A DNA stretch of 64,000 nucleotides from assembly GCA_046563655.1 (NCBI GenBank), contig CM102285.1:13454001-13518000 (forward strand), read 5' to 3'. The DNA comes from Yuukianura sp. NJ FZ-2021 (Eukaryota). Shown piece by piece: positions 33,765 to 57,615 of the stretch (position 1 is the first letter of the stretch; each line of letters begins with the position of its first letter). Both the position numbers and the translations under genes were made by a program. The notes beneath the pieces were generated by a model, which was not told the DNA's origin, ran no database searches, and worked only from the letters and a program-made list of their open reading frames with translations.

Positions 33765-36629
33765 ATTCAATTTTCAAACTTATTATAATGTTATTTTAAT
33801 GTTAGCATATGATTAGTTTAGACCTTGACCTTTCTTCACTAATAGTTCCAAATTCAATCGGACTGAGACAAGCGACACAGCGTCTGCCAACATCTTCATA
33901 GCAAGCATTGCAGTACACCGTGTCACATTTCGGACAGTCGACGAAATTCTCAGTGTCATCAATGTCCCCTCCAAGTCCACAAAGGAAACACTTCCTTCGC
34001 GCAGCACGAATCAGACTGAAAAGTCTTCTGAAGCAGGGACTCCTAATGCGAAAATGTCATTTTGAATTTTCAAAAACTGAATTTCATTGTTCAAAATTTC
34101 AGAAATGCTAACGTATGCGATAGCCTTTGGATGATTCCAATCCTGTAAGTAGTTTTTCCGTTGGATAGCATTGCTCTCAGTTCATTTCTTGCGTAGAATA
34201 TGAAATTTTCCCGTGAAGTTAGGATGTTTGCGTATAGCCAACGGTCACGTGGAACTCTGCGTTCGGGGTAATAACTGTCGCAGATGATATGACGCAGACG
34301 CATTCCGTAGGGCTCGGTGACGCAAGCGATGAAGCAGACAATCAAAAGAAAAACTATTGCCGAAAACAAATTTCAAGAATTTATAATTGTTTGATTTGAG
34401 AAATTTTCAGAAGGTTTTGTGAAACCTACAAATCATGGCGTATCGATAATAGTTTGGTTTCGATGGAATTGGAAGGCACGGTGAAGTGTCAAATACTGGC
34501 AGCAGGGCTCCTATCGGACTCAGAGCTTCGAGAATGGCTCTATACATGTCAGCCATGAACCCATGTCCACTGATCGTCACTCCATGACCGAGCAGTTCTG
34601 AGCAAAGGTCAAAGGTTACCTTTAAAAAATGTATTTGAATTTTACATTTTCTTGATTTTTTTTTACTTCTTGTATCCACATGAATCGCTCCATATTTCTG
34701 GACAAGCAGCAGAAACTGATAGAAGACGTAGTCAATGAAAACGTAAATCAAAATTTTGAGAGCTCCAAGTCCAACGAAAACTAGTTGCTGTTTTAGTGCT
34801 TTTTGTTCCGATGGGACAAGCACTAGAGAAAATGTCTGAAAATTTTGGAAAAAGTTTTCAAAAATACCTTAGATTTTCAAAATTTTGGAATACCTGGACA
34901 TAAGTAAATGACTCTCTGTATTTCAGTGGAAACACTGGATCACGTCCCAAGCGTCTCATTCGTAAATCCAGTTGCACAATTCCTTTTGTGATGTAAAAGT
35001 TGTCGTGTCGATCAATCGTTAGAAAACGGTGACGGTAAATCAGGGCTCTGAAATTTTAATTTTCACAAAATGATTCAAAATTTTGAAATTTTGCAATTTG
35101 TATTATACTTGTAAAGAGCAAGTCCCATGAACAGTGATGCTAGAATGTTGACCCAATCCATATAGTCCAATAGCCAATGGATTTCATCCAGAATCTCCGA
35201 TTTCATACCGCGTACAACTTGGCGAAAACTTTTTGACGAAGTAAACGAACCTTCCAATTCATAGTCAAAGCGAATTCGAACATCAAAAAACTTTTTGATT
35301 GAAGCTCCAATGTCTTTTAGACCTGAAATATCCACGACTCTCACGTTATCCCAAAGTTTTCTTTTCAAACTTCCAGTATTTTTGGTTTTGGTCTAAGAAT
35401 TTCTTTGTATTACCGTTTTTGATTGGATCCAGAACACTTTCCTTGATGAGCCCCGGTAACCAGCAGATGACTCCTTCTGTCCATTCGGCCAAGTAGCACA
35501 ATTGCTTAGCCAAGTCCACTACTGCACACATCCAACCAAACGCACTGCCCAAGCGATTTCGACAATCGCTGATCGCTTCGTCAAAACCTGCTCGGCATTT
35601 CGCCGAAGGTGATCCAACTTTGTCGTTGCAAAATGACATTATGTTTTTCAGCCACTTCAATACGGCTTTGATCGAATTAACTAAAACGTGCGAGACGGCT
35701 CCATAACTTTTTGAGTATGAAAAAGAAACTTGAGTTTACTCATTTAAATTTACCAACTGCAGTGATCATGTTTATCAGCGCTCGTAAACTGGCCATAATT
35801 GACGCTGCAGCGTTTTGGACAGCATCGACCATTGCTTTCAGAGCACCCCCTAGTGCAGAGTACGGATCCTTCACAAGGTTGATGAGACCTTGTGTAGCAT
35901 TATGTGCCATTTCCTGTCCAGAGAAATATCATTCGAAATTTCGAAAACTTTTTCCTTTGAAAGTTTCAGTTATAAAATGAGTTTTTAAAGATTTACTTGT
36001 GAACAAAGCAGACTTTCCGTAAGAATCTCCATATTTTGTGTAGTGTTTTTTCCTGGTCCAGACAGTGCCAAAATGAGACAGTAAGCCAAAATCGCTGCTC
36101 TTCCTTTTTTCGTAAAAAACTGTGGAAGTGTGAGATACAGAAAACAGCGCAATGTCACTGAAAAGGCTAAACCCAAGGTCAGAACTGATCCGAAGAGGAT
36201 TGAAGCGTAGACGGTCCCCACGGGGTCAAAGTTCAATTGAAAAATTAGAAAAATCGACACAGCTTGTGTCAAAATCAGTCCAACTGAAAATATCAAAAAA
36301 TTTCAAAAAATAGAAAACTTTACGAATGGTTTCAGAAAACCCGAAAACTTACGAATAAGTCCGAATAGACTTTTGAGGATGCTGTTCGCCAGGGTTCCAT
36401 CGGTCCAAAGTACTTGCCAAGTAGTTTGTCCACTTTTGACTTTCCAGAAAAAGCATGGACAGAATATGCGAAGAGTCAAGCGCTTGAGACACTGCAAAAA
36501 TCTTCTGCAGCATCCGTACCTTGGTGGAAGACCAATACTTTGGCGATATGCATTCAGCTTAACTTCTTTGATTCTGCCCAATGCTCTCCACACTTTTATG
36601 ATTTTCAAAAGTACTAAACAGACCGGCAT
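32150..36629 (-). CDS. DC-STAMP domain protein (DCST2/sneaky-like) with RING-like Cys cluster and long Ser/acidic tail
   Basis: LPQFFTKKGRAAILAY..LSGPGKN, Cys-rich ectodomain, DNFYIT, CLPIPSKPNY, EPYGMRLRHIICDSYYPERR, then CFLC..CPKC..YCNAC..CVAC. Three further Ser-rich exons follow in phase. Confidence 0.85.
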
Positions 36630-37142
36630 CTCAAATTTTGTCCAATTTTTTGAACTACTATTCCGAAAAATGCAAGTAACTTTTTACATCCAACGCACTG
36701 AATCTTGTAAGAAAACTAAATTCCAAAATCTTTGAGAAATTGAAATCCTCCAAACTTTTTCTTTACAAAGTTTTCAAGTTCTTTGCGCTTGCTCAAGTCT
36801 TGACATGCAGCCATGACATCAGCGATATTCATACCATTTTTGTAAGTTCTATTTCTAAATTAACAGAATTACTTATGTTGGACACAAAAATTGTAAACTG
36901 TCAAACATGTGACGCTAGAGGAAGTGGGTAGTAAACCGGAAAGTGAATTTAAAATAACACATAGGAAAAATTGCACAAAATTTTCTAACTTCACTTTTCG
37001 CAAATAAAAATTTAGCTCCCCCATTTTTACCTAAAAACAGAGTCCACGTAAAGTTAGATGACATTGTGAGAAACTTCGGGTTTGACCAAATCAGAAGTTA
37101 AAACTTGAAAATCTACGAAAATTCATTTAGGTTTACCCTACC

Positions 37143-40100
37143 ATGACCTGTCGTCGAAGTGGCTCACTTTTTCTTTTGCTTTATCTCTCTATTACTGTAC
37201 TGTACTGTACCGTGACCTCTGTGACCTCCCCAGAATCTTCTGTACCAAATTGCTTTTCTAATGTCAACGGCGCTGTAGTAAACCGTGATTCCAGTCCGAA
37301 GTGCACAATAATCACCTCGAAGAATCAAGACTTCGAATGTGAAGAAATTCAAGGGTCAATGAACCAAATTGACAAGCAGTTCAGGATACGGGGAGAGTAT
37401 GGCAGTAAGAAACGAAATTTAATTTTTAGTAGATTTAAGTTATGTGTAATTTAATTCACAATTGATTGACAGTTTTGACGATCCAGTGCATATCATGGTA
37501 CCGACTGGACTTCGACTACGATGGATTTCGGGTAGAATTTTAGCACAATTTGTCAAAGTGTTGCTTTGCTCAAATAGTTTTTTGTGATACAGCCAACAGA
37601 AGCGATTAAAGTCAGCTACTGGAAAAATGTGACGGTTCCGGCAGAATCTGACCAATTTCAGTTTAGGCCCAGCCTTCCCATTACGTCTGTTGGACTCAGC
37701 GTGTCAATTTACAGTATTCAAACACTGTTTGAACAGTTTCAAAAAGACGAACATCGAAAACAGCTTCAAATTGCAAACACAACTCAACCAATCATCTACT
37801 CAAGAACTGGACGATACATTATTCACGCTATGGAAAAGGATTTACGACTCACGTAACGAAAATTTGAAGAATCTTTTCCGATGTTTGATAATGATTTTAT
37901 AAAAATTTGGTTTTATAGCACCAATAATCAGTCTTTCTACTTCTTCTTTGAAGGTTTGGAAACATTTGTAAACGTATACTATGTGTTTTATTTTTTTAAA
38001 TATTTGTATATTTGAAAAGTTTGATTACGTATGAAACCAGAGCCACTGATGAGAGGTCACGAAAGTTTTATATGGAACCAATACACCGATTTCTACAAAA
38101 GCGTCCCCGTCGACATTGATTTTGTCCCAACGAAACAAAATGAAAAGAAGCAATTCACCATTCCATGTCGGCCTTCACACTATTACACTACGGACAAGGT
38201 CATACTCATACTGGGGTAAGCCAGCATGCAATTGCTCACTTTCACTCACTAACTTAAGTACCGAACGAATAAGTAATGTTAATTTCTTATTTTCAACAGA
38301 ACGCCAGGGACGTGGGCTGCAAAAACTCTAACGCTGTTGGCAAAATTTGACCCAACAGTAGGATTCAAAGTGGACTCGGACAAATTGGGGGGCTTTGCAG
38401 ACCAACCACGTTTCCATTGTCAACTTATGTCGCCAGGGTCTAGTCATATGATTGAAATTGTATTGAATTCTCAACGTAAGTCTTCTGCAAAAGGTCAGCG
38501 GTCAATGACCTTCTGACTTTACATGTTCTAAATTTTACACTAGAACCTTCGGGGAAACTGTTCGGAGTAAATCAAATGAAAATGAGAAAGGACTCGGACG
38601 CTATTAGTCTGGAAATCGCGTTGAAGTTTACTCCGGAGTCAAATTTTGCAGCGTTGAAGTGCTCGTTCAATTCTGACAACGAAAAGAAGGGCACTGAAAA
38701 GTTCATGTCATGGGGAACACCTTTGACCTCGTTCCAGGAACTCCAGCATTCCAGAGAATTTGTTCTGCCGGTACAGAAGAATCTGTGCTTTCAAAACTTT
38801 GAATTTCAAGATTTTCTTTTGATTTTTTAGGATTTTTCAAAATTGAGTTACTACAGTCAAACTGGAGCGTATTATGGAAGTTTATCGTACGAAATCAAAC
38901 ACGAATCTTCCTTCGGTGTTATGTTTTGTACAACTGGCGAACAGTACAAGTATTTCGAGTATGAAATTGGGATCAACGGGGAGCGACTTCAGCATCCGGC
39001 AGGCTATGGTGAATCTTTTATCAACCTTAACTACATTATCAACTTAAGCTAACCTTATTAAGTTTAGGTTGGATTCCAAGAAATGTTCGGATGGACAAAT
39101 ACATTCATCTTCAACAGATCGCCCCCGATCCATCGGAAGTTTTGTACGATTTTCGTACTTTCATGTTCGTGTGCCGACATGCCACGCCCTATATGGCACC
39201 GCCTGTGCTCTGGTTTACCAGAAATATAGAAGCAAGATACAAACTAGGTACTACTTTGGTAATCAAAAAACATGAAGCCACCCAGTGACCTTTGACCTCA
39301 AAATTGTTTTTCACAGTTCATATTGATTCAGACTACAAAAGATTGACAAACCGTGCCTTTCCTACCCTAAGCATCAACCTCACCTCTGACATCATTGAAA
39401 TGTTCTGCTCCATATCGTTTATTGACGCTAACGAATGGACGAATTCTTCAGTCAATTTGGAAATAATTGGTGAGGGAACACATTTTTAGATGCTGGCAAA
39501 AATCAGTGACTTTGATCTTTATGTTCTGTAGCTGGCGATCCACCTATCATAACATCGACCACATTCGAATACGCGTTTCCAATAGATTCTGAGAATCGAC
39601 AAATGGAATGCTCCGCAAAGGGGCGCCCTACGCCGATGGTGTGGTGGGAACGAAATGGCAAGGTTGGTTCATAAAAAGAGTTGATTTGACCTTTGACTTA
39701 TGAGTGAAACTGTTTTTGATACAAAAACGAAGACAATGGGGGCTGAAAGGTCTGGAAGCAATACGCTCCAACTGGCCAAGATCACAAACGACTCTGCCGG
39801 GGAGTACATTTGTAGATTCAAGAATCCTTATGCAGAAGGTCATCAGGTATTTGTGGTTGACGTTGAAAAAGCGCCTGTCGTTAGCTTTACAGCTCATACA
39901 CCTCCTGGAGACGTGTTTCCATTTTATTGGGTCATCGTAGCTTTCGCAATAGTCTTCATTGTTGCTACAGTCTCAATTTACGCCTACTTCCGAATGCGGT
40001 TTAATCAAGTACTTACCAAATTCCAAAACTATTTAAGAAAAAATGTCAAAATTCGAAAACTCTCGACGCTTTTTTTTTATTTCAGATTTTGTCTAAAGAA

Positions 40101-41647
40101 GAAATCGACGATTTCAAAAATGGCGTGGCTCCGCCCCCAAGCGTTGATATGACCGCGCCTCCAGAGGTCACGCCAGAGAGTTTACCATATCCAAAGGAAT
40201 ATGAAATTCCTTTAGATCAATTTACAGTCGGTATGACTTTCTCCGTACTACAATTTTGCGAATCATGGAATTTCAAAATTTTATTAATTCAAAATTTTGT
40301 GAGTTCAAAATTTCAAAAATTTGTTTGGTAGATGGACAAAGTGTTCTTGGTGTTGGTAATTTCGGTGCAGTTTCGAAGGGCTATGTAAAAAACGTTCTGG
40401 TTGCATGTAAAACTGTAAAGGACAAATCAGACAAGGCGAGTATCAAGGCGTTTCTGTCTGAAATCAAAGTCATGATTTACCTAGGAGAAAGTCCATTTCT
40501 AGTGCGTTTAGTTGGAGCGTCGACTGCAAATTTAAAACAAGGTAAAAATCCAAAGTTCTGCTTCAAAAAGCTAATTGAAAAAAATGATTTTGAAGGAATC
40601 GTGTACGCATTTGTGGAGTTTTGTGAATTGGGGAGTCTGCTTGAGTTTCTTCAAAAACACCGTTCAGAATTTCTGAAATCTCAGTAAGAAATTGTACTCA
40701 AATGTTGCAGTTACATGTTTCGCACAATAACAAACTACAAGAAAGGTGGTTGACCTTTGACCTCTTGAGTGCTTTTGCATACATTTGAGATTTGACATTT
40801 AGGTATTCGAACATGGAAGTTGGAGGTCTTAATGTTGACTTACTAATCACTTGGTCAGTCCAAGTAGCTCGTGGTATGTCGTACTTGGGATCTAAGAAGG
40901 TACGAATTAGTACCTATATTATATTTTATTACCATAAAATGTGTTATATTTTATGTTTTATAATTAGATTCATTTATGCAGGTAATTCATGGAGACTTGG
41001 CTGCCAGAAACGTTTTGTTAACTCAAGGTCGATGTGTCAAAATTACGGATTTTGGCCTTTCTAGGTAAAAACTCGTTTTGAAAAATTCAAAACAAAAAGT
41101 TGAAAGAAAAGTTGGGAATACAAGGTTTGAGATTTCATTTGACCCTAGACAATTGTACAACTACTGCCAATATGTTCGGAAGGGCGAAGTACGTAAAAAA
41201 TTTGAATTATGCAATACAAAATTGAGCAAAATTTGCATGTGACCTCAATTGACCTTTGGCCTTTTCAAAGGAACCTTTGCCTTGGCGTTGGTTGAGCATC
41301 GAGGCGTTGGCTGACCTCACATTTTCCATTGAATCTGACATTTGGTCTTATGGAATTCTGCTATGGGAAATATTTTCTCTGGGTGAAGTGCCATATCCTG
41401 GACACAGTTGTACAATTGATTTCATCAAGCAATTGAAAGGTGGACTACGCATGGAATGTCCAACACTAATGGCACCGGAATTGTAAGGTCAAACGTTTCA
41501 AGGTCAAAGGTCAACTTCTTAAATTTTCAATTCTTTAGATTTGGGAAGTTAGTTCTCCCGTGTTGGGAGAAAGAACCAACGGATCGTCTGAAGTTTCAGG
41601 AAATCATTGACATCCTCGTTCCGTATCAACGTTACCAAAATGCTTAA
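37143..41647 (+). CDS. PDGF/VEGF receptor-like (Pvr-type) receptor tyrosine kinase
   Basis: Signal peptide; Ig-like exons ([19 protein letters not shown]...[10 protein letters not shown]); TM helix; kinase motifs [53 protein letters not shown]. Confidence 0.9.
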
Positions 41648-41959
41648 AATTTCGAAAATTATTTCAAAAAATTGCAGAACATCAACATTTTATGTAAACG
41701 ACCACGATTTCATTTTATTTTAAGACCTCGGACACAAGGAATTACGCTTAAGACGCAAACGCAATAGGAAAAGGACAGAGAGTGTGGGATACGATTTAAG
41801 GGACAAAAAATTAATGAAAACAAACGACAATACTCACAACGGCTTTTGAAATTAAACTTTGTTGTAATTTGTTAAACTCGAAATTAAGTTGCGCTAGGAC
41901 AAGGATGGAGTTTATATGTCGGTGAGATGGAATTCAATTTTGAACTAAAACGTCGACTT

Positions 41960-43862
41960 CTATTGTTGTGCGCACCCAACCCGTTGAGCGCCATGTGGAA
42001 CATCATCGTCTTCGTCGCTGTCATGAGCGTTTCCGGACATTTCTTCGTAGTCATCAAGATCAACTTCCTCCACGTTGTCTCCTGTCGGCATTTCAAAGGG
42101 AACTCTGGCTGGCAACAGTGATTCCAGAGTCTACAAGAGGCAAACAAACAGGATTAAAGACCACTACATAACTGCTGCGAAGATTTCCAGAAATCGCTGA
42201 TACTGGAATTCAGCCTAATTCTGCTGATGATGTACCTTTAGAGTTTTCTCATCTGTGAAATGATTCTGTGGGAACTCGACTTTCATTTTGATATTGAGGT
42301 TTCCTTTTAAATTTGGATTCTTGTACATTGGCATCCCTTCACCTTCTATCACCAACATCGCATCGGCTGATACAACTGCACCGGGCCTGGAACATACAAA
42401 GTGTGAATAGTAATCTAAGCTATTAGCTGTAGTTTATAATAGGTAAAAGTACTGGATTACCCTCGAGTGGCCACCAATGTCCTTCCGTCCAACTGATCAA
42501 TGACGAACTGGAACCCACAAAGAGCTTCTGCAAGTGAAATTGTCCGGGACATCTCCAAGTTGTCGTTGTTCCGCTCAAAGACAGCATGCGGCATCTGTTG
42601 AACGACGTAAATCCAGTCCCCGGTGATAACTCCGGGCTGAAATCAGAACAAAAACGAAAAGTTAGTTTAGAGTATCCAATCAGCTGGAGGTGATTCAAAT
42701 GAAGTCGTGCGTTACCTCTTCATCTCCCATTCCCTCGAGCACGATTTTGGTTCCATGAGTCATTCCCTTGGTGACTTCGACTTCCACTTCACGTGACTGT
42801 GTCTTGATCTTAGCTCCGGAACATCCCTTACACTTGTCTTTGTCAGGAATGACAGTTCCTTGACCTTCACACTTGTTACAGGCGCCTTGGAGCTGCTGAA
42901 CAAGTCCTGGTCCGAGCTGTCTGTACTGTACCTTGACGCCAGTACCGCGACAGTCTGCACAAGGTTTGCTCCCCTTGGAACTCTTGCTTCCACTCCTGAA
43001 ATACAAAGTTCATATACTGAAATGTCGTTTACGAGTAAGATAACATCTACAACAAGACTAAAACTCAAACTAACCCGTCACAAGTGCTGCACAGTGCTTT
43101 CCTTTCGATGGTTTTTGTGAAGGTTTTTCCATTGTAAAGATCTTCCAGTGTGACACTAAAAGGAAAATGATTGTAAGAAGTTTCACGCGAGTCTTAAAAC
43201 GCTGTAATGTTAATGTTCATTCAACTGTAACTCACGTCAATGGTTTCATAGTATTTTCCCCTCGACGTTCACGACGACGGCCTCCACCACCTCCTCCAAA
43301 GAACATTCCACCACCACCGCCACCGAACAGGTCACCGAAGATATCTGCCCCACCGAAGGCCGAAAACGGATCCATTCCACCACCGCCTCCTCCTTCCTTC
43401 AGTCCTTTAAGTCCAAATCTGTCGTAGATCCCTCGTTTTTTAGAATCCGAGAGAACATCGTAGGCATACGAGATCTCTTTAAACTTGTCTCCGTGATCCG
43501 GGTTTTTGTCTGGATGGAAATCCTTTGCCAATTTGTGGTATGCCTGAAAACAACAAAAATAAAAACAAAGGTCAAGCCAGTGTAGTAAACATCACTTCCT
43601 ATTCGTTCGGTAGCTATGGTTTCCAGGTCAACGTGGGATCCGATCTCGTCGTTAATTAAATTTGGATTATAAGTCATCTCCAGTGTATGATTCATGTTCA
43701 CGACGAGTCTGATTAGGACTAAAAGCGGCGATGACGAAGCAGCTGACTGATGGATGGAAATAAAAAAAATGAATCCTTGCCAAGAAATTTTCTTACCCGT
43801 TTGATGTCAAATTCCGAAGCGCTCCTGGGTACTCCCAAGGTATCGTACAGTTTGTTATCCAT
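41960..43862 (-). CDS. DNAJA: DnaJ/Hsp40 class A co-chaperone (DNAJA1/2-like)
   Basis: J domain with HPDKNP, G/F-rich region, four CxxCxGx(G) zinc repeats, GEGMP and C-terminal CAAX box CAQQ*. Confidence 0.95.
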
Positions 43863-44821
43863 CGTTTGAGTTAATTCGAGTTAAATTTGTAACAAAGCTA
43901 AGAAGAAGTTAAGTTAATTACAAAGACGACCAAAGAGGGAAATCCGTCTCTTTCGGAGGTCAATTGAAAAAGAGAAGTGAAGGTGTCGGGATCGAGAACT
44001 CCGTAGAAGAAAGCCAATGCATTGGGGGAGTTGTGGCCGTGGGAACTTTGTGTTGCACGGTCATGGTTTTTGCAAATTCGGAGTGTTGTCATATTTTTCA
44101 AGCTGTTTCAGAAGTATATGTTCAAAACTGGCACATTTTGCATTAAAAAATGTGCTCAATTTTATGAGACAACTTTTACTGAAAATCTAGATACTTTTGG
44201 CAACATAGAGAAAATGGGAATTTCAAAATCCACAACCGCGTCACCCACAAACAAGAAACAAGTTGACGCTTTTCTAAACTAAACTAAAGTTAACTTGCGA
44301 ATTAAATTAAATTTATAATATATTGTTAATTTAATTGAATCAGGTTTTGTTTCAAAATAAAACACAATTTAATGATGAATGCTTGCTGAAAGCATACGCT
44401 CAAGTTTCATCTTCTTCGAGTCGTTTCCGTAAAATGTAGCAATAAAAATTTTTTGTTTGTCATTTTAATGGTGCAACAAAAGGTGTTCATCAAAAGTATT
44501 TTTGGAAAACAAATTGGCGTAATTGCATTGTTTTTCGTTAATCAGCAGATACAAATTATATCTCTGCAAATTGGGATTAAAGCTAGCGTCACTTTTTGAT
44601 AAAAATTTAATTTCGCAAATCTCTTTAACCTTTGTTTTAGAACTACGCAGATAGAAGGTGATATGATAAAAATGAGACTCTGATACTAGAAAATGTATTA
44701 GAGTTTGCAATTTAGCAGAGTGACTACAGTCGATTGGTGTCAAGTACACCAAAAAGTACTTTGGAATTCGTTTTTCGTATTTTGTTGTTAACGCTAAAAC
44801 GTTTTTAGCGATAGCGACACA

Positions 44822-47800
44822 ATGGATCGATTTCTATTGGAAAGTGATGAAGAAGATGTAACGGGAATTCCTAAACGAAGTGAAGAAGTGTAAGATACGA
44901 TGACGAAAAAAAAATGAAATTCCTGGATTTCTTGAAAAATCGATTTGAGTTTTATAATTTTGTAAAATTTTTCAGAAACAAGAACATCCGAAAACCGTGG
45001 GACAAAGCAGAACTTTTGCCACCGGACGGCGAAACGCAAGCGTTCGAAGATGAAAAATGCTATTTATATTTGCTCAAAACGCTAAAGGTGAAACGTCAAC
45101 TTATTTTTGTTGAAGTTTTGCTCAATTCTGAAAATTGACCTTTGACCTCTGAAAACTGAATTTTTCAGATCCTGGCCTACATATTGACCTTCTTCTTGAC
45201 CCTTGGCGGGACAATGTTTGCCAAGTCAACGCTACTTCTAATGACTTCTCAGCTTACCCGAAATAGAACAGTTCCGTACTGCGCTGGTCAGTGACCTCAA
45301 CTTTTCAAAAAATTTCCGAAATAAAATTTCAAGTTTGCTATTTTTTGGTGCAACAAAAACGAAAAACGAAAGTTATTTTCAGAACACAAAGTTTGGTTTG
45401 CACTTTTGCCGATTAGAGGGACGACTAAAGTGAACCACAACGGATTGGTGTCAAGGTCAACAAAAAATAGCATGGAATTCGTTTTTCGTTTTCTAATTTA
45501 AGCGTTAGCGTAAAAACGTTTTGCCTCGTCGTGGCTTTCAGTCGTACTGCGCTGCTCTATGACCTCAAGTTTTTTGAAATGTCGCATAATTTTAGTTTTT
45601 GATGTTAATTTTTTCATTTTTCAGGGGAATATCAACAGTTGGAAACACACCCAATGCCACTGGAAGTAATTTCCTGGACATGGGCAATCTTCTTTTGTTT
45701 TACATTTCCAGAACTTCTGGTAGTCCTGAGATCTGTGCGAATTTGGATGTTCAAGGCCACAATGCGCCCAACATTTTTCCAGTTTTTCTTTCCAACGCTT
45801 TTCGAGGTTCCGTTTCCAAAATTTTCCAAAAATTTCAAGGTGCCAAAAACTTTTCAACTTCCGGCATATTTCTTTTCAGACTTTCCATGCCTTTGGCCTT
45901 TCACTGTTCGCTTTTGTCGTTCTGCCTTCGATGAACATCCTGCGTGGAACCATGCTCACAAACGCGTTTTGCACGATTCCAATCATTTTTAGTAAGATTT
46001 CATTTTGTTTTTGAAAAATAAAATGTCTCTAAATGCATGTTACCTGTTGAATGCTTGACCTTTGACCTGTGCAGGTCTGCTGAGCCGAACACCCCTAGAA
46101 AGTCCGAAGCATCCCGAGAAGGATGGTCGTTTAAAGTGGCTTACCGTAACTTCTATCGACTTTGCGGCATTCCTGAGTCTTGCAGCCGGATTTACGTTAT
46201 GGGCACTATTTAACAACGAACCGGAAGGCATGTCGTGGCTAATTCCGGTGACCGCGGTTCTCATCTCGTTCGGATGGTGGGAAAACTACGCCGACAGACA
46301 TTCCTTCTTCAGTAAATGTCCAATCATGTTCAAGCATTATTCAGAAACCACATCTGAATCAATCTCCAAGCTATTTTGCATTTGATTTTAGAACCAATCC
46401 GAATGCTCGGAAATTTGAAACTGGGAATGAGTCGATACACAACTTACATTTTTCTACCATTTTGGAAAATTTTCGTTTTCGGAGCTGGAATGGTCCTCTC
46501 GACTTGGCTAATGGGAGATGACTGGACATCACTTTTTACGGACTTTACAAAATCGTTTCAAACGCATATCATTGAATACAGTGAAGTGAGACTAATTTTG
46601 GAATGATTTGATTAATATAATATAAAATATGGTATAATAAATCAAACTTGAAATATTTAGGTGCGAGCTCCAATTGCCAACGGCAGTCTCCCGACGACTG
46701 GAGGTGACGAATTCTACGGTGAAGTCCATAACGCCAACAACGTGCCATCGGCTGTCCGGTGGGCCATTCTCGCCCAGACGATGGCTGGACTCATTGCATA
46801 CCTCACTGGTAATTTCAAATATACGCAACATAAACGATAACGTTCAAGCTTGTAAATTTCATAATTTCAACTATTTCAAATTTTATAGGAAAATTCGCAT
46901 GCAAAATTGGAATTCAGAGTTTCAGTTTCGCTTTCCCCCTGAGCCTTGGCGTTCCAGCGACGCTTGTGATGATTGCAACACTTTGCGGCCTTCGTGACAG
47001 AAATACTTGCCTACTTCGTGGCGTTTTTGCACCGTATCTATTCTGGGAGTGTCCGGAAGGCCACATTCTTCACGACTTCTTCCTCGGAGAGGTAATTTGA
47101 CACAACTTTTAAAAATATTTTGCAGCGATTCCTAATCCAACGTTTCTGTTTTTTCAGTTTGGTTGGGTATGGTTCCTCTGGATACTTGCCCAAATTTGGA
47201 TCACAATTCACATTTGGAGTCCAAAATTTAGACGTCTGGAACGTGGCGAAATTCTGTTTGTGCTGCCATACTACAGTGGGCTTATCGTCGACCAATCACT
47301 GACCATGAATCGTCGGAAACATGTGTATCACTATGACGTGCTTGACGAGGATGATGAACTGGAAGAGATGGAAGACACTGGAGCAGCGTATAAGCAGCTC
47401 AACAACGCTGTAGATTTCACTTTTGAAGACGACACTGTTCCCAAGATCTTCGCATGCGCTACAATGTGGCATGAAATCAAAGTAAACCGAAAATCGCTGA
47501 ATCTTTAAAAAATTTCAAAAACAATTCGCGAAAATTTTTCATCCTTGTGTATCCTTCCAGAGCGAAATGAGTGAAATGCTGAAAAGTATTTTTCGAATGG
47601 ACGAAGATCAGGCAGCACGCAGAATCGCTCGAAAATACTTTGCTGTCATGGATCCTGATTACTATGAACTAGAAAGTAAGTAGACGTCAAGTATTCAGTG
47701 CTTCAAAAATTTATGTAACAAAAAAACAAAATGTATGTTTTATGTTACAAAAAGTTAACATTTTGGACTAAATTTTGATTTTAGCACACATATTCTTCGA

Positions 47801-50800
47801 CGATTGTTTCAACAGAGCTGGAACGAGTGTCAACTCCTACGTAAAAGATCTACTGGACAGTTTAGAAGATGCTGCAAGTCAAGTTCATGAAACGATTGTC
47901 ACTTTGGCTCCACCCAAGAAGTATCCCACGCCCTACGGTGGAAGACTGGAGTGGACGTTACCTGGCGGCACAAAATTGTTCGTCCATCTCAAAAACAAAG
48001 AAAAAATTCGACATAAAAAACGCTGGTCACAGGTCATGTACATGTATTACCTCCTTGGCCACCGACTTCTGGAACGCGACATTCCTATATCCAGAAAAGA
48101 AGTTATCGGTGAGAACACTTTCATCTTGGCCCTTGACGGCGACATTGACTTCAAGCCGCAAGCCGTTCGACTCCTCGTGGATCTTATGAAGAAAAACAAA
48201 AGCCTAGGAGCCGCTTGCGGACGGATTCATCCAGTCGGATCTGGTTAGAAAAAAAACACAGCCATTTCTTAAAATTTCTCAAAAAGAAAAAAGAAAATTT
48301 CTGGTTTTTTAAAAAAATATTTGTTTCCAATTTCAGGTTTGATGGTGTGGTATCAAAAATTCGAGGTTAGATTATGTTTTTGGGGCAGTGAAACTTTTTT
48401 CCAAGCTTTCTGGTCAAAATTTTGGAAATTTCACGTTTTATGTTGTTTCAAACGTTTTTGTAACGTTTTCCAGTATGCGATTGGTCATTGGTTTCAAAAA
48501 GCAACGGAGCATGTCATTGGCTGCGTCCTGTGCTCTCCTGGATGCTTTTCACTTTTCCGCGGAAAGGCTCTTCTGGACAAAAACGTCATGGCCAAGTACA
48601 CTACGAAAGCAACCGAATCCAGACACTACGTTCAGTATGATCAGGGCGAAGACCGTTGGCTCTGTACGCTTTTGCTTCAACAAGGATACCGCGTCGAGTA
48701 TTCTGCTGCCAGCGATGCTCTGACACACTGTCCAGAACAATTTGGAGAATTCTTTACACAGAGACGCCGATGGGTTCCATCCACCATGGCCAATATCATG
48801 GATCTCCTCGTCGACTACAAACGAACAATTCGGACCAATCCTGACATTTCATCAATCTACATTGCTTATCAAGTAAGCTTTCAAATCTTTAGTATTTCTG
48901 TAGTTGACCTTTTGACCTTTGACCTTGACCTTCCAGACCTTCATGATGGTCGGATCAGTGCTGGGACCTGGAACAATTTTCTTGATGTTGATTGGTGCAT
49001 TCAACTCGGCCTTTAATATTCCTAACATGGAATGCTTTTACTGGAACATCGTTCCAGTTGGAATTTTTATTCTTGTTTGCTTCTTTGCCAAATCCGAAGT
49101 CCAGGTGAGTTGTTCTAAAATTTTGAAAAAAAAAATGCTTGAACCAACATTTTTTAAATTTTGAAAATACTGCTTGTTTTCAACGCAGTTAATTGTAGCC
49201 CAAATACTTTCGGCCGTTTATGCTCTGATTATGGTGGCGGTACTGGTGGCTCTTTTGATTCAAATTCAAGACGATGGACCGCTAGCTCCGACGTCGCTGT
49301 TTCTGTTCATGGTAGCGTCAAGTTTCATCGTGGCTGCAATTCTGCATCCACTTGAATTTTGGTGTCTACCGTACGGACTCGTCTACTACATCACCATTCC
49401 ATCCATGTACTTGCTCCTCATCATCTACTCACTGATGAACCTCAATGTAAGTCCAGATCAAGGTCAACTTAATCTATCTACTGCAGCCATGTCACAAATT
49501 TGGTTTATATTCAAGGTCGTATCTTGGGGAACTCGAGAAAACGTGGAAGAAGTGACGCCGGATCAGGTTCAGATTCGGAACACATTTTGTAGCAAAATTT
49601 TGAAAAAAATTAGAATCTTTGCTGAAAATTTCTGTTTGAGTTTTTTTTTTCTAAACAGGCAGCGGCGGCAGCAGCAGCAGCAGAACTAGCCAAGAAGAAA
49701 GACGCTGACGGAATACTTGGAACGCTCATGAATTATTTCCAGCCTAAGAAGACAGAAGAATCAGAAGGGTCCTTTGAAATATCATTCGCTGGACTTTTTA
49801 AACTAATGTGTTGCACAAAACCTACAATTGACGAAGACAAACTTCAACTTACAGAAATAAGTTCCACTTTACACGACATTAACAAGAGACTTGATAGCAT
49901 GGAACGGTAATAAGCCCCCCACTAAAATACTAAATCCGATTACTTTTACTAAAGTAATCATAGAGTAATCGAAAGCGTTTTGATAACGATTTTACTTTCA
50001 CCACAGATTTCCTGGAGAAAATCCTGCACACGTTTCTGTTCGAATCGATGACCAACCAGCTCTTCCAGAACAAACGGCAGAAGATTTCGGTGATTCCGTT
50101 TCACAATTCGAAACGGTACCGCTCAAACCCGGTAAAAACCGAACCACTTTTCTAAAAAAAATCGAAACAGAAGATTTACTTAATCAGTTGTCAATTATTC
50201 CTCCAGAGGAACCAGAAAAGAGAAACGATTTGGTCAATCCCGAGTGGATCGATGACCCTGACCTGCTCGACGGTGAAGTTGACTTCCTCACTGGAGATGA
50301 ACTGACGTTCTGGAGAGATATGATGGATAAGTACTTGCTTCCACTGGACGAAGACAAAGCAAAACAAGTAAAATTATCTACATTTTAAAACATGTTCAAA
50401 AATATGACCTTTTGACCTAATTTTGAAAGATTTCACTTTCAGAAAAAAGTTGCCGAAGAGTTGTACCAGCTCAGGAACAAAACAGTATTTTTCTTCTTCA
50501 TGGTCAACGCTGTTTTCGTCGTAGCAGTTTTCCTGCTCCAAAATGAAAAAGAAACGCTGTACATCGAGTGGCCCTTGGGCGGTACCTACAACATGACCTA
50601 CGTTACTTCGAACATGTACAATGTGAGTAACTTCACCTTTGACCTTGACCAAGCACTACTAAGTTTGAAATTCTTCTTATTAGATTGACCTCCAATCAAA
50701 TCCACTTAGACTGGAACCAATCGGAGTCTGTTTCGTTCTCGTCTTTGCAGTCGTGATGATTATCCAGGTTAATTTTCAAATTTCCGAATTTCGATTACTT

Positions 50801-51576
50801 CAGAAATCTAAAAACAGATTTCTTTTCCAGTTCATTGCGATGTTGATTCATCGCTTCGGAACTTTCAGTCACATTCTGTCATCAACTCCAATTGAGTGGT
50901 GTACCCGAGATGTCGAAGATGTAGCAAAAGAAAGCGCTTTGGAAAAGGAAGGACTCAATATGATTAGAAACCTTCAAAAACTTAAAAATAAGGAAGGCAA
51001 GTCCCGAAAAACTTTCAAAATTTTGAAAATATTTTGATAAAATCTTTCATTTTAGGAGACATGAAAGGTCGTAAGAGCAAAACTACAGTTGGAGATGTCG
51101 CGAGACGTAAAACGATTGCCAACTTGGAGAGGAGTCAAAACGTTGACAACAAGCCTGCCAATATCGAAAGTGCTTTCAATGCTGCCTTCAAGGAAGTGTC
51201 GCAATGTAAATTATTTAAAAATTAAAGTTAATTATATTAAAATTAGGTTGTGATTTTAATAATTTTAACTTTAATCCAGCCGGAGAGAAACAAGAGAAGC
51301 TGCTGCGAGGTGGGCGACAGTCGCGTGTCACTTTTCAACAATTAGCACGTCGCCGCAGTACTGTTCTCGAAAGACGTCAGTCAACAGTGACAGACATTCG
51401 GCGGAAGTCTGTCACCGTTCCAAATGACAGCTTCAGTGCAATGCCATATCAAAGGGGAAGAAGTGGCGCCAGTGTCCAGTACAAGAATCCAGTAAGTTGA
51501 TCAATTTCTGAATTTATTATTCAAAATTTTGAAATTTTGTTTTGAATTTCAGGCCTACGATTCAGACGGCGACTGA
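44822..51576 (+). CDS. CHS: Chitin synthase (arthropod type), more than 20 exons
   Basis: CATMWHE, TPYGGRL, KIRHKKRWSQVMYMYYLLG, LDGDIDF, CSPGCFSLFR, QYDQGEDRW, QRRRW, SWGTRE; TGA 51574-51576. The 5' start is the least certain part. Confidence 0.95.
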
Positions 51577-52068
51577 AATTGATTTAGAAACCGACTAGTA
51601 GTATTGAACCTCAAAGTATTGACGATTCCGAGTAATCGATTGTTTCAAATTTTGAAAACAGATTGTTTCTCAAATTAAAATAAAACGAAGAAAGTTTTAT
51701 AAAAGCATCGATCATGAATCATATTTAAACTGAATTTGTACATGCGCAAAATAACTCGTTTTGTAACAAAGATTTTGCAGATCCACTACTCCCCCTTTCC
51801 GGTTTTGTATACACCAATGCCATTAATCGTTAAAAAATCATAGCACTGATCTTGTCGAGCAAGTTGAATTACCATAAAGAGGAAATGAGGATTCGGGTTC
51901 AACAGCTTCTGAGCAAATCAAGTCCAAACCCTCACTTTTGTTTTATGATCAAGTTCAATTCCATTGCGAAAAAGATTGACCAATCACAAAACGTTGGAAG
52001 TTAAGTTCACAGTTAAATTGACTCACGAAGTGAAGTTTGACTAATCGATTAATTAGCTATAATCCAAA

Positions 52069-54056
52069 ATGAAGCGAAACATTATCATCATCTGCGTAGT
52101 TTTGCTAATAGTGACCAATTTAACGCACGGTGAGCACAAGTAATTTGGGAAATACAGAAAAAAAAAACTTTTTGCGAAAAAAGTCGCATTTAAGTGCAAC
52201 TCAAATGTTGTTTTGCAGGGCGCCATATTTCAAAAGTTTCAGCACGCAATGGAGACAGCACTGGATCTGCGCAAGCGCAGGATTCGCTCAAGCGTCTTTT
52301 GCAGTACTACCGATCCCAGAAAACAGAAAACGTAGGAACTTCTGTAGAGGGGTCACCGGAATTGTTCGAAATCGATTTGAGTGAAAGCCAAAGAGGCAAA
52401 TTTCGACTGGACTTTTCAAATTCCTATGTCGCTAGAGGTAATCACTGGCCTGCCACCAGCTTCTTGACCTTTGACCTCTGACTTTTACAAACTGTGTTTC
52501 AGATGACATGGTTCCATTTGCCGAAGATGTTCCCTTTGGAAGTCTGGCGCCATCACCACCGAAGCCTTCTGTGGCATCAGAAACTCCGGAAGAAAGTCAA
52601 GACGCAGCGATTCCAGTTGACAGTGCTTATGTCGTCATTTCCCAGCCAGAATACGAACAACCAGCGAATCTGGAGACAGAAAATGCAGAAATTGAACATG
52701 TTGAAAATGTTAATGTGCAAGTAAATGAAAATGAGAAGAATGAAAGTGAACCAATAGTACTTGCGGGTTCCAGTGCCACTCCAGATCCGGAAGAAGCCGA
52801 GAAAGAAGTGACGACGATGTTTCCAGTTGACAAGATAAGTGACATGACTCCAGTTGTTGCAATGGTCCAGAAACTTAAAACTTCTGTGGAGGAAGACGTT
52901 AGCCATTATGATGATGACGACGACGCAGAAGGTACAGTGTGATCACTTGCTGAAAATATCCATAGAAAAGACTATTAAAAACTTAACAACTTTTTGAACT
53001 GCTTTTCCCTCAGATTCTGAAGAACATTGTACTGAAGGAGAAACGAAAAGGTTACGCTGTAACAACGCCTGCGTCTGCGTCGACGGAGCCTTCTTTTGTT
53101 CAAATCGAAAATGCGAAGATGCTGGCCACAAGTCCAACGCTACTCAAGTTTCTTCCACGATGAAAAACGACGCAGATAAAACTGAAAAGAAACCGTGGGG
53201 GTTTAAGAAGAAGTCACCATCGGATACAACGATGCCAGCCTGCAGCAGGTAATCCAATAGTACTACTAATTCAAAATTTTGGTCAAAAATTTCAAAAATT
53301 TTTCAAAAGAAAAAATCCTAACGAATTGTTGGTACAAATTTTTCAGCGGTATGACCAAATCCGTTGACTGCAACCAGTGCGTCTGCGTGATGGGAAAATG
53401 GGCTTGTACCAAACGCGCTTGCATAGCTTTGACTCTCAGAGGTTAGTCAATTAAATTAAATTAAATCAAGTTAATTTAAAGTTATCCTTGAATATGAACC
53501 TTTAATATACCAACCTTGAATATAATTTAGAGAAAGCAAGTTATACTGATGGCGTCAGTCTGTACAACCAAGTTGGAACTTTGGTGGAAAACAAGGACTT
53601 TGACGGTAGTATTAAAATCTAAAACCATAAATTATTCAATACTTAATAAAAATTAATTACAGTAAAAGTTAATTAATTTTCAGAGGACTGCATTGAAGGT
53701 GTAACAAGGCAAATGGGATGCAATCAGTGCATTTGTCATTTGAATTCTTGGTCGTGTTCAAATTTCACCTGTGAACCAACTCCACCTCCAAAGAAGCCAC
53801 AAGAGATTCAAGGTCAGTTCGATTTTTTCAAAAACTCAGAAATCGAAATCCATATTTAACGATTTCTGAAATTTCAGAAGCCTGTCAAAAGGAAGGAGAC
53901 GTGAAGAGCCGTGGCTGTAACTTGTGTAAATGCAATCGTGGGATTTGGGTTTGTTCAAACAACAATTGCAATGCATACGAAGATAAAGACGAAACTATTC
54001 CCATGAGGTATCGAACTTCTACGAAAACTGCCAATTCAAACACTCCAAAACAGTAA
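52069..54056 (+). CDS. Secreted pacifastin-domain protein: acidic N-terminal region plus 4 pacifastin-like domains
   Basis: Signal peptide MKRNIIIICVVLLIV. Domain cores CNNACVCVDGAFFCSNRKC, CNQCVCVMGKWACTKRAC, CNQCICHLNSWSCSNFTC, CNLCKCNRGIWVCSNNNC, each preceded by a sixth Cys. Confidence 0.8.
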
Positions 54057-54177
54057 CATCGAACATTCCTGTCAAAAATCGGCTGAATATTTAATACAAA
54101 GTGTAAACAGAACAAGTATAAATCAATAATTAAATTAACAAATCAACATTTCAAACGAAACTGTAAATTCCCGGTAT

Positions 54178-57100
54178 TTACTGGCCTTCAACGTGCAGTT
54201 CCGTTGCAAGGTGAGTCTGCAAATCAGAAAGTTTTTTCTTGAGAGCAGCGATGCCCATGATGACAATATTTTCTGGTTTCAACGCTCCACTGCTTTCGAC
54301 GTTGAAGAAAAATCGGGAAGGAGCTCCATCGTACTTAAAATCGGCTTCATCTAAACATCAAAGTGCACAAAGTTAGAATTATTTCCAAAGTAAAAGCAAA
54401 ATCGCTGCAATTTATCCTTTTTTACTTACGTTTGTCTTCATCATTGAGTTCTGAATATTCACTTCTGGTATTAGATGGCCATTCCTCTGGTTTCGGAAAA
54501 ATCGTATGTCTGAAAGCATTGTCTGGATCGTATTCAAAAGCAACTCCCGCAGTTGGATTCCATTTAGCATGCTCCTTTCCAAATCCCTTCTTAGCATAGG
54601 CTCTCAATTTCAATTCTTGGCCTTTCCGGAGCTTGATGATCAAAATATCTGCAAGTACAAAGAAATTACGCAACTCCATGTCAATTTCCTGTCAGAAATT
54701 CTATCTTACCATCAGATCCGTCGCCATCAAAATGTGCTTCCTCGTCTTTTCCTTGAGATGTCACCGGAACGACACGAGGGTCTTTGGAAATCAAGTCTGC
54801 CGAAGTGACATTAATTGTTCGGTCGTCGTGACACTTCACATCCAGCAAAAACTCGACACTGCAACTTGTACAGAAGTCTTCGCATTCGCACTCCTGAAAA
54901 GAGAAAAAGAAACGAAACTATGAAAAATTATGAAATTACTAAAATAAGACAACTATTTTCTGCAATTATCGTTTTCTTTTGAAAATTAGCACGCAAGCAC
55001 AAAAGTGATGCTTCCTTCGTACATAAAAACCTGTCTCGCTGCGAAACTTTAATGCTAGACATTACAATGGCTTCAACTGCTGTATTGTTGACAGCGCTGA
55101 TCTTATGCTACAAGTCAGTGAACACACAAAGTATAGCTAAGATTTTGCAGCCTCTATCACATTGCTATTTCATTCAAATTCAAAATTCTGCAGAAAGTAC
55201 AGATCAAAGCTGCGACACAGCATTGGGGTAACAACATTTCAATTTGATTTCTGGAAAACTTTTTTTAATTTTTTGAATTAATAGAGCGGCCGAAGTTCCT
55301 GGAATGAGGCTTGACCTGACTACTTTTGATTTCAACCTAATCCAGCACTTTGGAGTGAAACAGCCAATCCGATACGAGCATCAATGCGTTACTTTTCTAA
55401 TTCCTATTCCTGTAGAAGAAGAGCTGAATTCCAGATTCTTTGCAAGTCCAGAACTTCAATTACAAGCTGGAATGTCCTACTTGATTTTTCACAACTCTGG
55501 AACAAGGTCTACCACATATGAGTCCAGCATGTTACGACAGAGTGCTGAAGCAATTGGTCCAGCACTTGAGAACTTTCCACACAGAATACTGCTAAGAACA
55601 CCAACAAGCGAAGAGGTAACAATCTATCAGTTTCAGTATTATTCCTTCCAGGGAACTTCGAAATTTCATCAGTGGAAGTCACTGAGACTGGAGCAGTTGG
55701 AATCAGAAACAGTGGATACGCTATATCCCGACGTGACGAGGAATTTGAATGGGAAGATGTTAAGATGCAGTGCTCCTCCAGCTCCGCCTCTTGTATACTT
55801 GGTTCCATCTAAAGATGATCCAGCCAAGTTGGACATCGTTGGAATGCAAGAAGTAATTCTGAAGTCAATGGCTGCTACTCTCAATTTTACGTTCACACTG
55901 CGCAAGGCTTCACAGGGTCTCACAGGCGTTCAGTTTCCGAATGGCAGTTGGAATGGAATCATGGAGGAAGTGTTGACTGGAAAAGCTGATATTGGACTCT
56001 CCGTGGCCACTTCATACGAACGTGAGAAAGTGTTTGACTTTACTGTTCCCGTTTTCAATGCATTTCTGGTCCTCGTATCGATGAAACCCACTCCATTCTT
56101 CAATTGGGAAGCAATCTTCTATCCGTTCGGTCGCAAAGCTTGGTTGGCCATTTTGGCTTGCACAGTTCTGTCGCTGGTCGTCAGTAGATTGTTGTACAAC
56201 AGATCAGCAGTCATACTTGATAAATTTCTGCAAACACAATCACAACACATTTCAAAAAACACGACAGAAAAACGATTGAATGAAAAAATATCAATGTTTC
56301 AGGCAACGTGTCTTACCGTAGGAGCTTTGCTGGAACAGGGATGCCATCTGAGAATGCCCGCCATTTCAACGCGAATGTTCGTATCATTTTGGTTCTTTGC
56401 CGCGATTGTCATCACTTGTGCATATCGCAGTAAGCTGTTTCTGTTTCTAACGTTCCCGACAGTCGAAAAGCCTCCGTCAACATTCGAGGAACTTTCGATA
56501 TCAAAGTACAAGTGGGGACTTAAGTCCCTCGGGGGAGTTGGACTTCAATTTATCACCCAATCACCACTGGCACATGTCCGCTACATTGGAGAAAAGTTGG
56601 AGATTTCAACGGATAAGTACTCCTGTCTAGACAAAACCATTAACGAGAAGTTTGTTTGCATCATCTACAGAGCCTATATTGACTACATGCTGGAATTGCG
56701 ATACTGGAACATGAGACACAAGTTCCACATTTCCGACTACCTCACACCTCCAGTTGGATCATCCTGGGTATTGCGGAAGTATTCGCCACTGCTACCAATA
56801 CTAAACAAATTGCATGCTGGACAATTCGAAATGGGATTGGCTGATAAGTACATTGACATTTATCAGCAAGGAGTAGCAAAGGAGTTCAGAATTCAGGCTA
56901 AAAATCCTGAATCCAAGGTTGACAAGTTTGATCAAAACATCAACTATGTCCCGGAAAGCGAAGAATCTAAACCTCTTCGTCTAACAAATCTGTATGGTGC
57001 GTTCTTCATCTTGGCCTTTGGGTTTTCAATTGCTGGACTCACTTTTGCAACGGAAATGATTCGAGCGATGACTAAGAGGACGAAAGTGGAAGACCTGACG

Positions 57101-57615
57101 AGGCAACCCAGAACAAAGCATGGTGCTGCTACACTCGGATTCATCCGCAGAAAGATGCCTGCAACGAAGCTTAACGTAGTAACGCAGATTAGAACTTAAA
57201 TCTATCCTAGAACTGATGTAAGTAAAATAATATAATTAGAATTGGAAAGATACGTAGTGTGATTTTAAAACTTACTCGACTGTATCTCATGCCTTCAATG
57301 ACAAGGTCAGACGTTAGCGGAATCATTCCAATTCGGTGTGCAATAAATTCGTCGCTTAGAACTGTCGAATTGGCTTCAAATTGAACCCAGTCAATTGCCA
57401 TTGTTGGGGTCTCCGCAATGAATACCCGGCGCAGGCTATTGGCAACACTAATATAAAACAAAATAACGATCTTAGTCATGACCTTTGACATTCGTTTCCT
57501 TTACCAAAGCAAGCATTCTCTCGTCTCACCTGAGATCAGTATCCTCTATCTGGAACTTGACATTTTCGCCTGTGAATTCTGTGATCTTGACAGTTGGCTG
57601 ATTTGCATAAGGCAT
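54178..57615 (-). CDS. POLR2C: RNA polymerase II subunit RPB3, 5 exons, with a 2.4 kb intron 2 (54894-57275)
   Basis: [32 protein letters not shown]...[13 protein letters not shown], zinc loop [38 protein letters not shown]. Confidence 0.96.
55052..57199 (+). CDS. Divergent ionotropic receptor (IR, variant iGluR) nested antisense in the RPB3 intron
   Basis: A short signal-peptide exon (ATG 55052 or 55067) splices in frame at 55285 into the 631-aa ORF. Motifs [19 protein letters not shown]...ADIG...ER...FDFT, IFYPF...[32 protein letters not shown]. Confidence 0.9.

Follow-up and report, generated by a model that had tools for sequence, protein, structure and literature searches.

The 64,000-nucleotide (nt) stretch of the Yuukianura sp. 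NJ FZ-2021 genome analyzed here (contig CM102285.1, positions 13,454,001 to 13,518,000; hereafter the window, numbered from its first letter) contains a block of three neighboring plus-strand genes whose short introns carry seven exact copies of a 13-mer, TGACCTTTGACCT. The copies start at 39286, 40751, 41501 (on the minus strand), 45136, 46056, 48913, and 52465, and each is a direct repeat of the hexameric half-site TGACCT (AGGTCA on the opposite strand) with a 1-nt spacer; copies are referred to as sense when TGACCT is on the transcript. This arrangement is that of the direct-repeat-1 (DR1) element of nuclear receptors.

The first of the three genes (37143-41630, +) codes for a predicted PDGFR/VEGFR-like receptor tyrosine kinase (RTK), with a membrane-helix-like stretch preceding the kinase domain and kinase exons whose best solved-structure matches are VEGFR, Kit, PDGFR, and FLT3. 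The second (44815-51576, +) is a chitin synthase gene, recognized by Pfam and with its exons in the same order as in the orthologous locus of a relative (L001); nearly all of the matches listed for one exon (the best 120 of 2,197) are insect, Artemia, and mite proteins at 65 to 71% identity, and among them are one mollusc protein (45% identity) and no closer relative, which places the organism in a poorly sampled arthropod lineage. The third (52069-54052, +) codes for a cysteine-rich, pacifastin-like protein with a weak Pacifastin_I match (22.8 bits, against a family cut-off of 27.9). An earlier reading of this DNA from its letters (the sequence-only reading) had labeled the hosts RTK, chitin synthase, and pacifastin; the first two labels are backed, but the third depends on this sub-cut-off match.

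Introns were predicted with heuristic gene models that chain splice sites and self-trained codon usage, and these give 89 confident introns with a median length of ∼75 nt and a total of 7,274 nt, or 11% of the window. The models are supported by Pfam matches on the predicted strands and frames, the families including tyrosine kinase, DnaJ, chitin synthase, a weak pacifastin, ORMDL, DC-STAMP, galactosyltransferase, and a glutamate-receptor channel, among others, and the chitin synthase models are also backed by exon-by-exon matches to L001. An Rfam scan of the window gave no matches.

All seven exact copies are in predicted short introns (∼75 nt), six in sense and one inverted, and six of the seven are exact (TTGACCT)2 14-mers. 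In the kinase gene, the exact 13-mer at 39286-39298 (+) is sense in intron 39248-39316 and ends 18 nt before the intron end, the 14-mer at 40750-40763 (+) is sense in intron 40684-40802, and a group of three half-sites at 41486-41514 (−), including an exact 14-mer, is inverted relative to the gene in intron 41483-41538. The chitin synthase gene has sense 14-mers at 45135-45148 (+; intron 45088-45168) and 46055-46068 (+; intron 45992-46074, ending 6 nt before the intron end), and an array of four half-sites at 48905-48931 (+) that fills the 3′ half of intron 48873-48936. In the pacifastin-like gene, a sense 14-mer followed by a degenerate third unit occupies 52464-52486 (+) of intron 52438-52502. 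The sequence-only reading had reported these seven perfect copies and the row of four half-sites, had placed all of the copies in introns, and had most of them reading UGACCU on the transcript with some inverted, and each of these statements is borne out, the intronic placement within the limits of the heuristic models. It had also described the motif as spread over many unrelated genes, which does not hold in this window, where exact copies are confined to the three neighboring plus-strand genes: they are found in 7 of the 36 confident introns of these genes and in none of the 53 others (Fisher P=0.0012), and introns with any half-site are likewise concentrated (12 of 36 versus 7 of 53, P=0.034).

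The recurrence of the 13-mer is real and statistically robust. The sequence-only reading had roughly estimated, from base composition, far less than one chance copy per 64 kb, and no copy is found in 100 dinucleotide-preserving shuffles. Allowing up to two mismatches gives 26 sites (7 exact, 10 with one mismatch, and 9 with two) against 2.17 expected, a number reached in no shuffle, and the window has 118 half-sites where base composition predicts 27. TGACCT is the top over-represented hexamer in the 89 introns, with 24 copies in 15 introns against 2.3 expected under an order-2 Markov model, and AGGTCA occurs 7 times against 0.83 expected. The enrichment also survives a background trained on the 69 motif-free introns, with 24 sense half-sites against 0.7 to 0.9 and 7 antisense half-sites against 0.3 to 0.95. 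The most recurrent complex dispersed 13-mer has 7 copies in the 36- to 56-kb part of the window, compared with 2 to 4 in two further 20-kb slices of the window and in 25 control loci with lengths of 8 kb or more.

Nine near-copies had also been listed, and eight of these are 1-mismatch matches (at 15680, 28843, 31600, 34606, 39687, 41250, 50633, and 57479); the ninth, at 50405, is instead a variant with a 2-nt spacer, TGACCTTTTGACCT. Those in the three-gene block are a sense copy at 39687-39699 (+) in kinase-gene intron 39644-39704, a half-site plus 1-mismatch 13-mer at 41240-41262 (+) between kinase-gene exons, in a probable intron outside the confident set, the two sense half-sites of the spacer variant at 50405-50418 (+) in chitin synthase intron 50368-50442, and a sense degenerate triple, TCACCT-T-TGACCT-TGACCA, at 50633-50651 (+) in chitin synthase intron 50623-50683. 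Two further elements are present in the block: a mixed-orientation group at 38492-38511 in kinase-gene intron 38476-38543, one part of which is an inverted pair with one mismatch and a 1-nt spacer (CGGTCAATGACCT), and a lone half-site, inverted and extended at its 5′ end (TCAAGGTCA), at 49458-49466 (+) in chitin synthase intron 49447-49515. Minus-strand genes carry 1-mismatch copies that are antisense at 28843-28855 (+; intron 28813-28893), sense at 34606-34618 (−; intron 34598-34666 of a DC-STAMP-like gene), antisense at 57479-57491 (+; intron 57448-57529 of an Rpb3-like gene), and antisense at 3825-3837 (+; a long intron of a kinase gene). Outside of introns, 1-mismatch 13-mers are at 15680-15692 (−), which is intergenic, and at 31600-31612 (+), in DNA that separates the DC-STAMP-like gene from the ORMDL gene. 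A four-half-site cluster of both orientations at 12904-12978, in a stretch without predicted genes (10.5 to 16 kb), includes a 1-mismatch 13-mer (12942-12954) as well as a perfect inverted pair whose half-sites are 1 nt apart (12949-12961).

The true unit of the motif is the heptamer TTGACCT, paired head-to-tail and only rarely present as three or four units. Tandem Repeats Finder reports period-7 arrays of 2.1 to 4.1 copies, and start-to-start spacings of same-strand half-sites peak at 7 (7 pairs), with 1 to 3 pairs each at 6, 8, 9, and 10. Copies start and stop at half-site boundaries in a fixed phase, and the longest array, at 48905-48931, has irregular spacings of 8, 7, and 6. The 70 bases to each side of the exact copies have nothing in common, the sequence shared among copies spans no more than 13 to 27 nt, and motif-bearing introns are alike in the motif alone. 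A repeat search of the whole window found only two motif-driven pairs (35 to 37 nt, 76 to 77% identity) and no longer repeat family containing the motif, in line with the initial description of unshared flanks without an obvious transposon. One of the seven exact copies is flanked by a direct repeat (CTGAAAA, on both sides of 45135-45148), and no target-site duplication is seen at the other six.

Half-sites occur at 4.4 per kb in introns, compared with 1.58 per kb in exons and 1.45 per kb in the rest of the window. Intronic half-sites have T at position −1 in 81% of instances, and T, T, G, A, and C follow downstream. Short introns contain 16 copies of the dyad TGACCT-T(0-2)-TGA (2.2 per kb), the remaining genic noncoding DNA contains 3, the 18.6 kb of intergenic DNA contains 5 (0.27 per kb), and exons contain 1. 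In each of the three noncoding classes the count exceeds the order-3 Markov expectation (1.0, 0.18, and 0.41, respectively); the 5 intergenic dyads compare with a maximum of 3 in 100 simulations. Of these five, four have the form TCAAGGTCA and are found in spacers that resemble promoters (24212/24380 and 31876/32005). Exonic TGACCT was considered as part of the motif and rejected, as neither the 28 sense nor the 17 antisense copies in exons have the extended context; the sense copies are mostly in the frame xxT-GAC-CTx, so codon usage explains them. Four exonic half-sites are accounted for by the repeated GGAGGTCAxCT codons of a coding tandem repeat (18758-19075, 33-nt units) in a plus-strand open reading frame (18669-19139) without a Pfam match.

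The motif is a young, lineage-specific feature, in keeping with the sequence-only reading. The comparison draws on 80 metagenome-contig loci (614,468 nt in total) found with one chitin synthase exon as query; these have 240 half-sites against 259 expected from base composition, and the 13-mer is absent from all 80. L001 is 88% identical over the query exon, and in a tblastn comparison it matches 20 chitin synthase exons of the window in the same order, together with one exon of the downstream pacifastin-like gene. No half-site is present in 18 L001 inter-exon intervals, while 5 of the 19 corresponding window intervals hold one (those starting at 45992, 48873, 49447, 50368, and 50623). At all five of these motif-bearing intervals L001 has an intron at the same position without the motif; these introns thus predate the motif, which was gained within them in this lineage, and an introner origin is excluded for them.

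Contigs of the same organism, and of one that is ∼3% diverged from it, match the window only at the motif and differ in their flanks, and loose contig ends fall at 39285, 41500, and 52464, with motif sites linked by short-sided joints of a kind typical of repeats. This suggests that there are many further copies elsewhere in the genome. In the samples that cover positions 36000-55999, contigs fall in similar numbers into the classes of 99% or higher, 95 to 99%, 90 to 95%, and below 90% likeness, and these 20 kb have 971 variable positions, which suggests high heterozygosity or a mixture of close relatives.

The 13-mer is identical to the DR1 consensus, 5′-AGGTCAaAGGTCA-3′, printed in PMC3252374, where it is used for HNF4 binding arrays; the DR1 likeness noted in the sequence-only reading is exact. 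Like a DR1 element, the window motif is a pair of directly repeated AGGTCA-type hexamers separated by 1 nt (seven exact copies), it is enriched in both orientations (a statement about occurrence only), and the window also has extended-monomer (TCAAGGTCA) and inverted-pair forms. The window copies differ in being perfect consensus, whereas response elements are usually degenerate, and in lying almost only in ∼75-nt introns rather than in promoters or enhancers; the likeness is one of sequence. DR1 elements are bound by HNF4 homodimers and also by RXR/USP, COUP-TF/Svp, and PPAR-RXR. TCAAGGTCA, which is the ERR consensus element (PMC10484738), occurs 12 times in the window against 0.86 expected. 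Pairs of exact copies of TCAAGGTCA, the ERR/FTZ-F1-type extended half-site, lie in two promoter-like intergenic spacers (24212-24220/24380-24388 and 31876-31884/32005-32013). Literature searches found no published report of intronic TGACCTTTGACCT or TTGACCT repeats.

The explanation that we prefer, although we hold it tentatively and at somewhat short of an even chance, is that the motif is a DNA-level site for a dimeric binder of the nuclear-receptor DR1 type, with its orientation set by avoidance of splice signals. Paired TTGACCT units would have arisen in this arthropod lineage inside preexisting tiny introns, and the pair would act as a high-affinity DNA site for a dimer-binding protein, for which the HNF4, RXR/USP, and COUP-TF/Svp classes are candidates, given that the opposite strand reads AGGTCA-A-AGGTCA, the DR1 consensus. 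Introns would host the sites because they are the only free noncoding DNA inside tightly packed genes, and sense copies would dominate because the AG and GT of the inverted form would be selected against near the 3′ splice site. The sequence of the motif, its enrichment, placement, and lineage specificity, its occurrence in both orientations, and its concentration on three genes are observed; binding by a protein, the identity of that protein as a nuclear receptor, and an effect of binding on the host genes are inferred. That the pair rather than the monomer is the unit follows from the predominance of exact 14-mers, the half-site-bounded ends, and the spacing peak at 7.

Besides the identity with the DR1 consensus, a DNA-level role is favored by the enrichment of both orientations in introns, the excess of related receptor-type arrangements and of intergenic dyads, and the gene specificity of the exact copies. 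The perfect inverted copy at 41501 is in an intron of a plus-strand gene, and only a strand-symmetric DNA element predicts such a copy, as it does the antisense 1-mismatch copies at 3825, 28843, and 57479. Three inverted pairs with a 1-nt spacer and no more than one mismatch are present, where half-site abundance predicts 0.55 (P=0.018), and one of them is perfect (12949-12961) and lies where no gene is predicted, which again is predicted by a strand-symmetric DNA element alone. Everted pairs, TGACCT-n-AGGTCA, are not enriched in the window (4 versus 2.0 expected). The inverted pair resembles an ecdysone response element; a literature search on this resemblance found no paper.

Several observations weigh against this preferred explanation. 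Under a uniform spread over non-exon DNA, finding all seven exact copies in short introns has a chance of 1.5e-5, and the restriction to introns is still improbable (P=0.004) within the 37- to 54-kb gene block; the dyad is ∼8 times denser in short introns than in intergenic DNA, and neither the confinement nor this density is predicted by an ordinary enhancer model. The relative's chitin synthase gene has no copy of the motif, so its basic regulation does not require one. It is unusual for binding sites shaped by point mutation to include seven perfect consensus copies, and the 7/10/9 mismatch spectrum fits neutral decay (d=0.10) from ∼28 originally perfect copies. Nuclear receptors tolerate half-site degeneracy of the form RGKTCA, and none of the 10 1-mismatch variants is of this type, although the sample is small. 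An unrelated 12-mer, CAAAATTTTGAA, is also restricted to genic noncoding DNA, which points to an intron-tied process rather than to one transcription factor.

The first of the alternatives, which we consider unlikely though still a serious candidate, is that the motif is an RNA-level splicing element, with UUGACCUUUGACCU providing a branch-point-like UUGAC followed by a pyrimidine-rich stretch, or else a site for a lineage-specific intron-binding protein, and thereby helping the recognition of very short, weak-signal introns in a coexpressed set of genes. The confinement of exact copies to short introns fits such a role, as does the intron restriction of CAAAATTTTGAA, and the sense excess points the same way: 15 introns have sense copies and 5 have antisense copies (P=0.02 against 1:1), with 5 sense and 2 antisense among introns of minus-strand genes. 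No sense half-site is in the first 30% of any intron, and half-site positions differ between the orientations (Mann-Whitney P=0.003, with counts that are not independent). Five introns have an array immediately next to the 3′ splice site, in the place taken by a run of T in other introns. Like a branch point and pyrimidine tract, the motif has a TTGAC that fits yUnAy and sense copies mostly in the 3′ half of introns, and 9 of 15 motif introns have no other yTrAy 9 to 45 nt upstream of the 3′ splice site (6 have one), but motif-free introns lack one equally often (36 of 69, with one present in 33).

The sequence-only reading had offered two alternatives, a genome-wide intragenic DNA mark read by a nuclear receptor or a lineage-specific splicing element, and the data are compatible with both. 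The strand bias on which it leaned proves not to be diagnostic. AG is avoided toward the 3′ splice site, with a frequency of 0.004 in the last 10 intron positions, 0.020 in positions 11 to 20, and ∼0.045 upstream, and the inverted motif contains AG twice as well as GT, so that AG avoidance by itself predicts a sense excess. If inverted copies are barred from the AG-poor zone, the estimated sense share is ∼0.61, with which 15:5 is compatible (P=0.15), and at the level of arrays the centers of sense arrays do not depart from a uniform spread (Kolmogorov-Smirnov P=0.26); the sense excess and the positional trend both lose significance on this accounting. Antisense intronic copies are themselves 7 to 20 times above expectation, one of them perfect, and near-perfect copies and the perfect inverted pair are in intergenic DNA. 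A branch site would be strand specific and in most introns, whereas a sense copy is in 15 of 89, which is too few for a general branch site, and the distance between the A of TGAC and the 3′ splice site varies between 6 and 63 nt among the 24 sense half-sites (13 of them within the 15 to 40 nt roughly expected of a branch point). A 5-mer would suffice for a branch site, which requires neither the complete hexamer nor the exact pair kept in the window, and on this alternative the exact match to a DNA-binding consensus would be fortuitous.

The other alternative that we rate as doubtful, to a similar degree, is that these are functionless (TTGACCT)n micro-arrays generated by an orientation-blind mutational process, either oligomer insertion at breaks or a dispersed simple satellite, whose pieces decay and survive mainly in harmless introns, mostly in the orientation without AG and GT. 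It is consistent with the period-7 arrays, the fit of the mismatch spectrum to neutral decay, the presence of both orientations, the lineage specificity, and the random look of the 1-mismatch variants, and the contigs that match at the motif only, some of which join several motif pieces, hint at larger arrays, although such short-sided joints are typical of repeats. As in a heptanucleotide microsatellite or short interstitial satellite, 7-nt units run head-to-tail with 2 to 4 per site, but the window has mostly exactly two units in a fixed phase with clean half-site ends, unlike random cuts of a satellite, and the 8, 7, 6 spacing of the longest array is unlike slippage products. Neutral insertion does not predict the ∼8-fold difference in density between introns and intergenic DNA, the concentration of exact copies in three genes also counts against it, and so does the absence of a target-site duplication at six of the seven. 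We know of no insertion mechanism for 14-nt pieces.

A related but improbable variant of a DNA-level role is an intragenic mark read by a nuclear-receptor-type or other dimeric protein and seeded in selected genes or across a whole chromosome or domain, with the 3′ regions of introns as the only tolerant DNA and the motif, built from a hormone-receptor site, as a functional analogue of MSL recognition elements. PMC4719309 and PMC6417741 describe roX/MSL high-affinity sites as ∼50% intronic, near intron 3′ ends and rare in coding sequence, ∼3-fold enriched at DNA encoding pyrimidine tracts, and arising rapidly through simple-repeat expansion, transposons, and co-opted pyrimidine tracts. They are thus a precedent for a DNA-level intragenic motif at intron 3′ ends that avoids coding sequence, and this precedent serves the receptor-site explanation as well. 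The window motif resembles these Drosophila dosage-compensation elements in its intragenic, intron-3′ placement and lineage-specific gain, and it differs in sequence, MSL motifs being GA-rich and chromosome-wide.

It is very improbable that the copies are decayed fragments of one transposon, miniature inverted-repeat transposable element, or short interspersed nuclear element family, or cores of introner-like elements: the motif is dispersed, in both orientations, and lineage specific, and Alu repeats have multiplied nuclear-receptor sites in primates, humans included (PMC3252374), but the flanks share nothing beyond the motif, the only larger repeats with the motif are the 35- to 37-nt motif-driven pairs, a flanking repeat is present at one copy of seven, and, for introners, the introns are alike in the motif only and predate it at all five covered chitin synthase positions. 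This possibility is largely refuted within the window. The Alu-spread sites are similar in being AGGTCA-type direct repeats at many copies in one lineage, but their carrier is a recognizable 300-nt retroposon, whereas the window copies share 13 to 27 nt at most.

If the motif is receptor bound, a compact animal genome would be placing perfect hormone-receptor sites in minimal introns, and introns of ∼75 nt, usually deemed near-neutral spacers, could carry regulatory DNA with an orientation set by splice-signal avoidance. If it acts at the RNA level, it would be a lineage-specific intron-recognition signal that mimics a DNA element by chance. In either case, strand bias in short introns is no proof of RNA function. 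The three neighboring genes, with seven identical sites and a relative that lacks them, provide a testable system.

A second recurrent motif family is the near-palindrome TTTCAAAATTTTGAAA, with examples at 40272-40313, 51008-51040, 51507-51539, 53270-53308, 35077-35104, and 6185-6209. A 13-mer of this family, CAAAATTTTGAAA, has 8 copies in the window, and the 12-mer CAAAATTTTGAA has 9 copies in short introns and 3 in the remaining genic noncoding DNA, with none in exons or in the 18.6 kb of intergenic DNA. The family is absent from the L001 ortholog introns, and many foreign contigs end at its sites.

Two other classes of intron were considered for the motif-bearing introns and rejected. U12-type introns have a 5′ splice-site box, RTATCCTT, and a TCCTTRAC-like branch site, and the motif introns begin with GTAAGN, GTACTA, GTGAAA, and similar sequences rather than with a U12-type box. 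Mirtron-like hairpins were looked for by inspecting the motif introns by eye, which revealed no supporting features.

The chitin synthase gene has several additional structural features. A 29-nt micro-exon (48337-48365) is predicted inside the 230-nt interval 48244-48473 and is nearly identical in L001. The 5′ part of the gene contains two pairs of duplicated segments, 44723-44796/45434-45507 and 45275-45305/45543-45573 (74% and 87% identity, respectively), which may be alternative exons. A predicted 63-nt intron at 50768-50830 is missing from L001, in which the exons on its two sides run on without a break, and it is either a lineage-specific intron or a miscalled in-frame coding insert.

Elsewhere in the window, an inverted repeat in a gene-poor stretch (10554-10623/10802-10871) has 70-nt arms that are 79% complementary and 178 nt apart; it contains internal tandem repeats of 15 to 32 nt and may be a small mobile element. 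An intron of the Rpb3-like gene (54182-54893 and 57254-57631, −) appears to contain, on the opposite strand, an ionotropic glutamate-receptor-like gene made up of a single exon (55285-57199, +; Lig_chan, a 637-amino-acid open reading frame).

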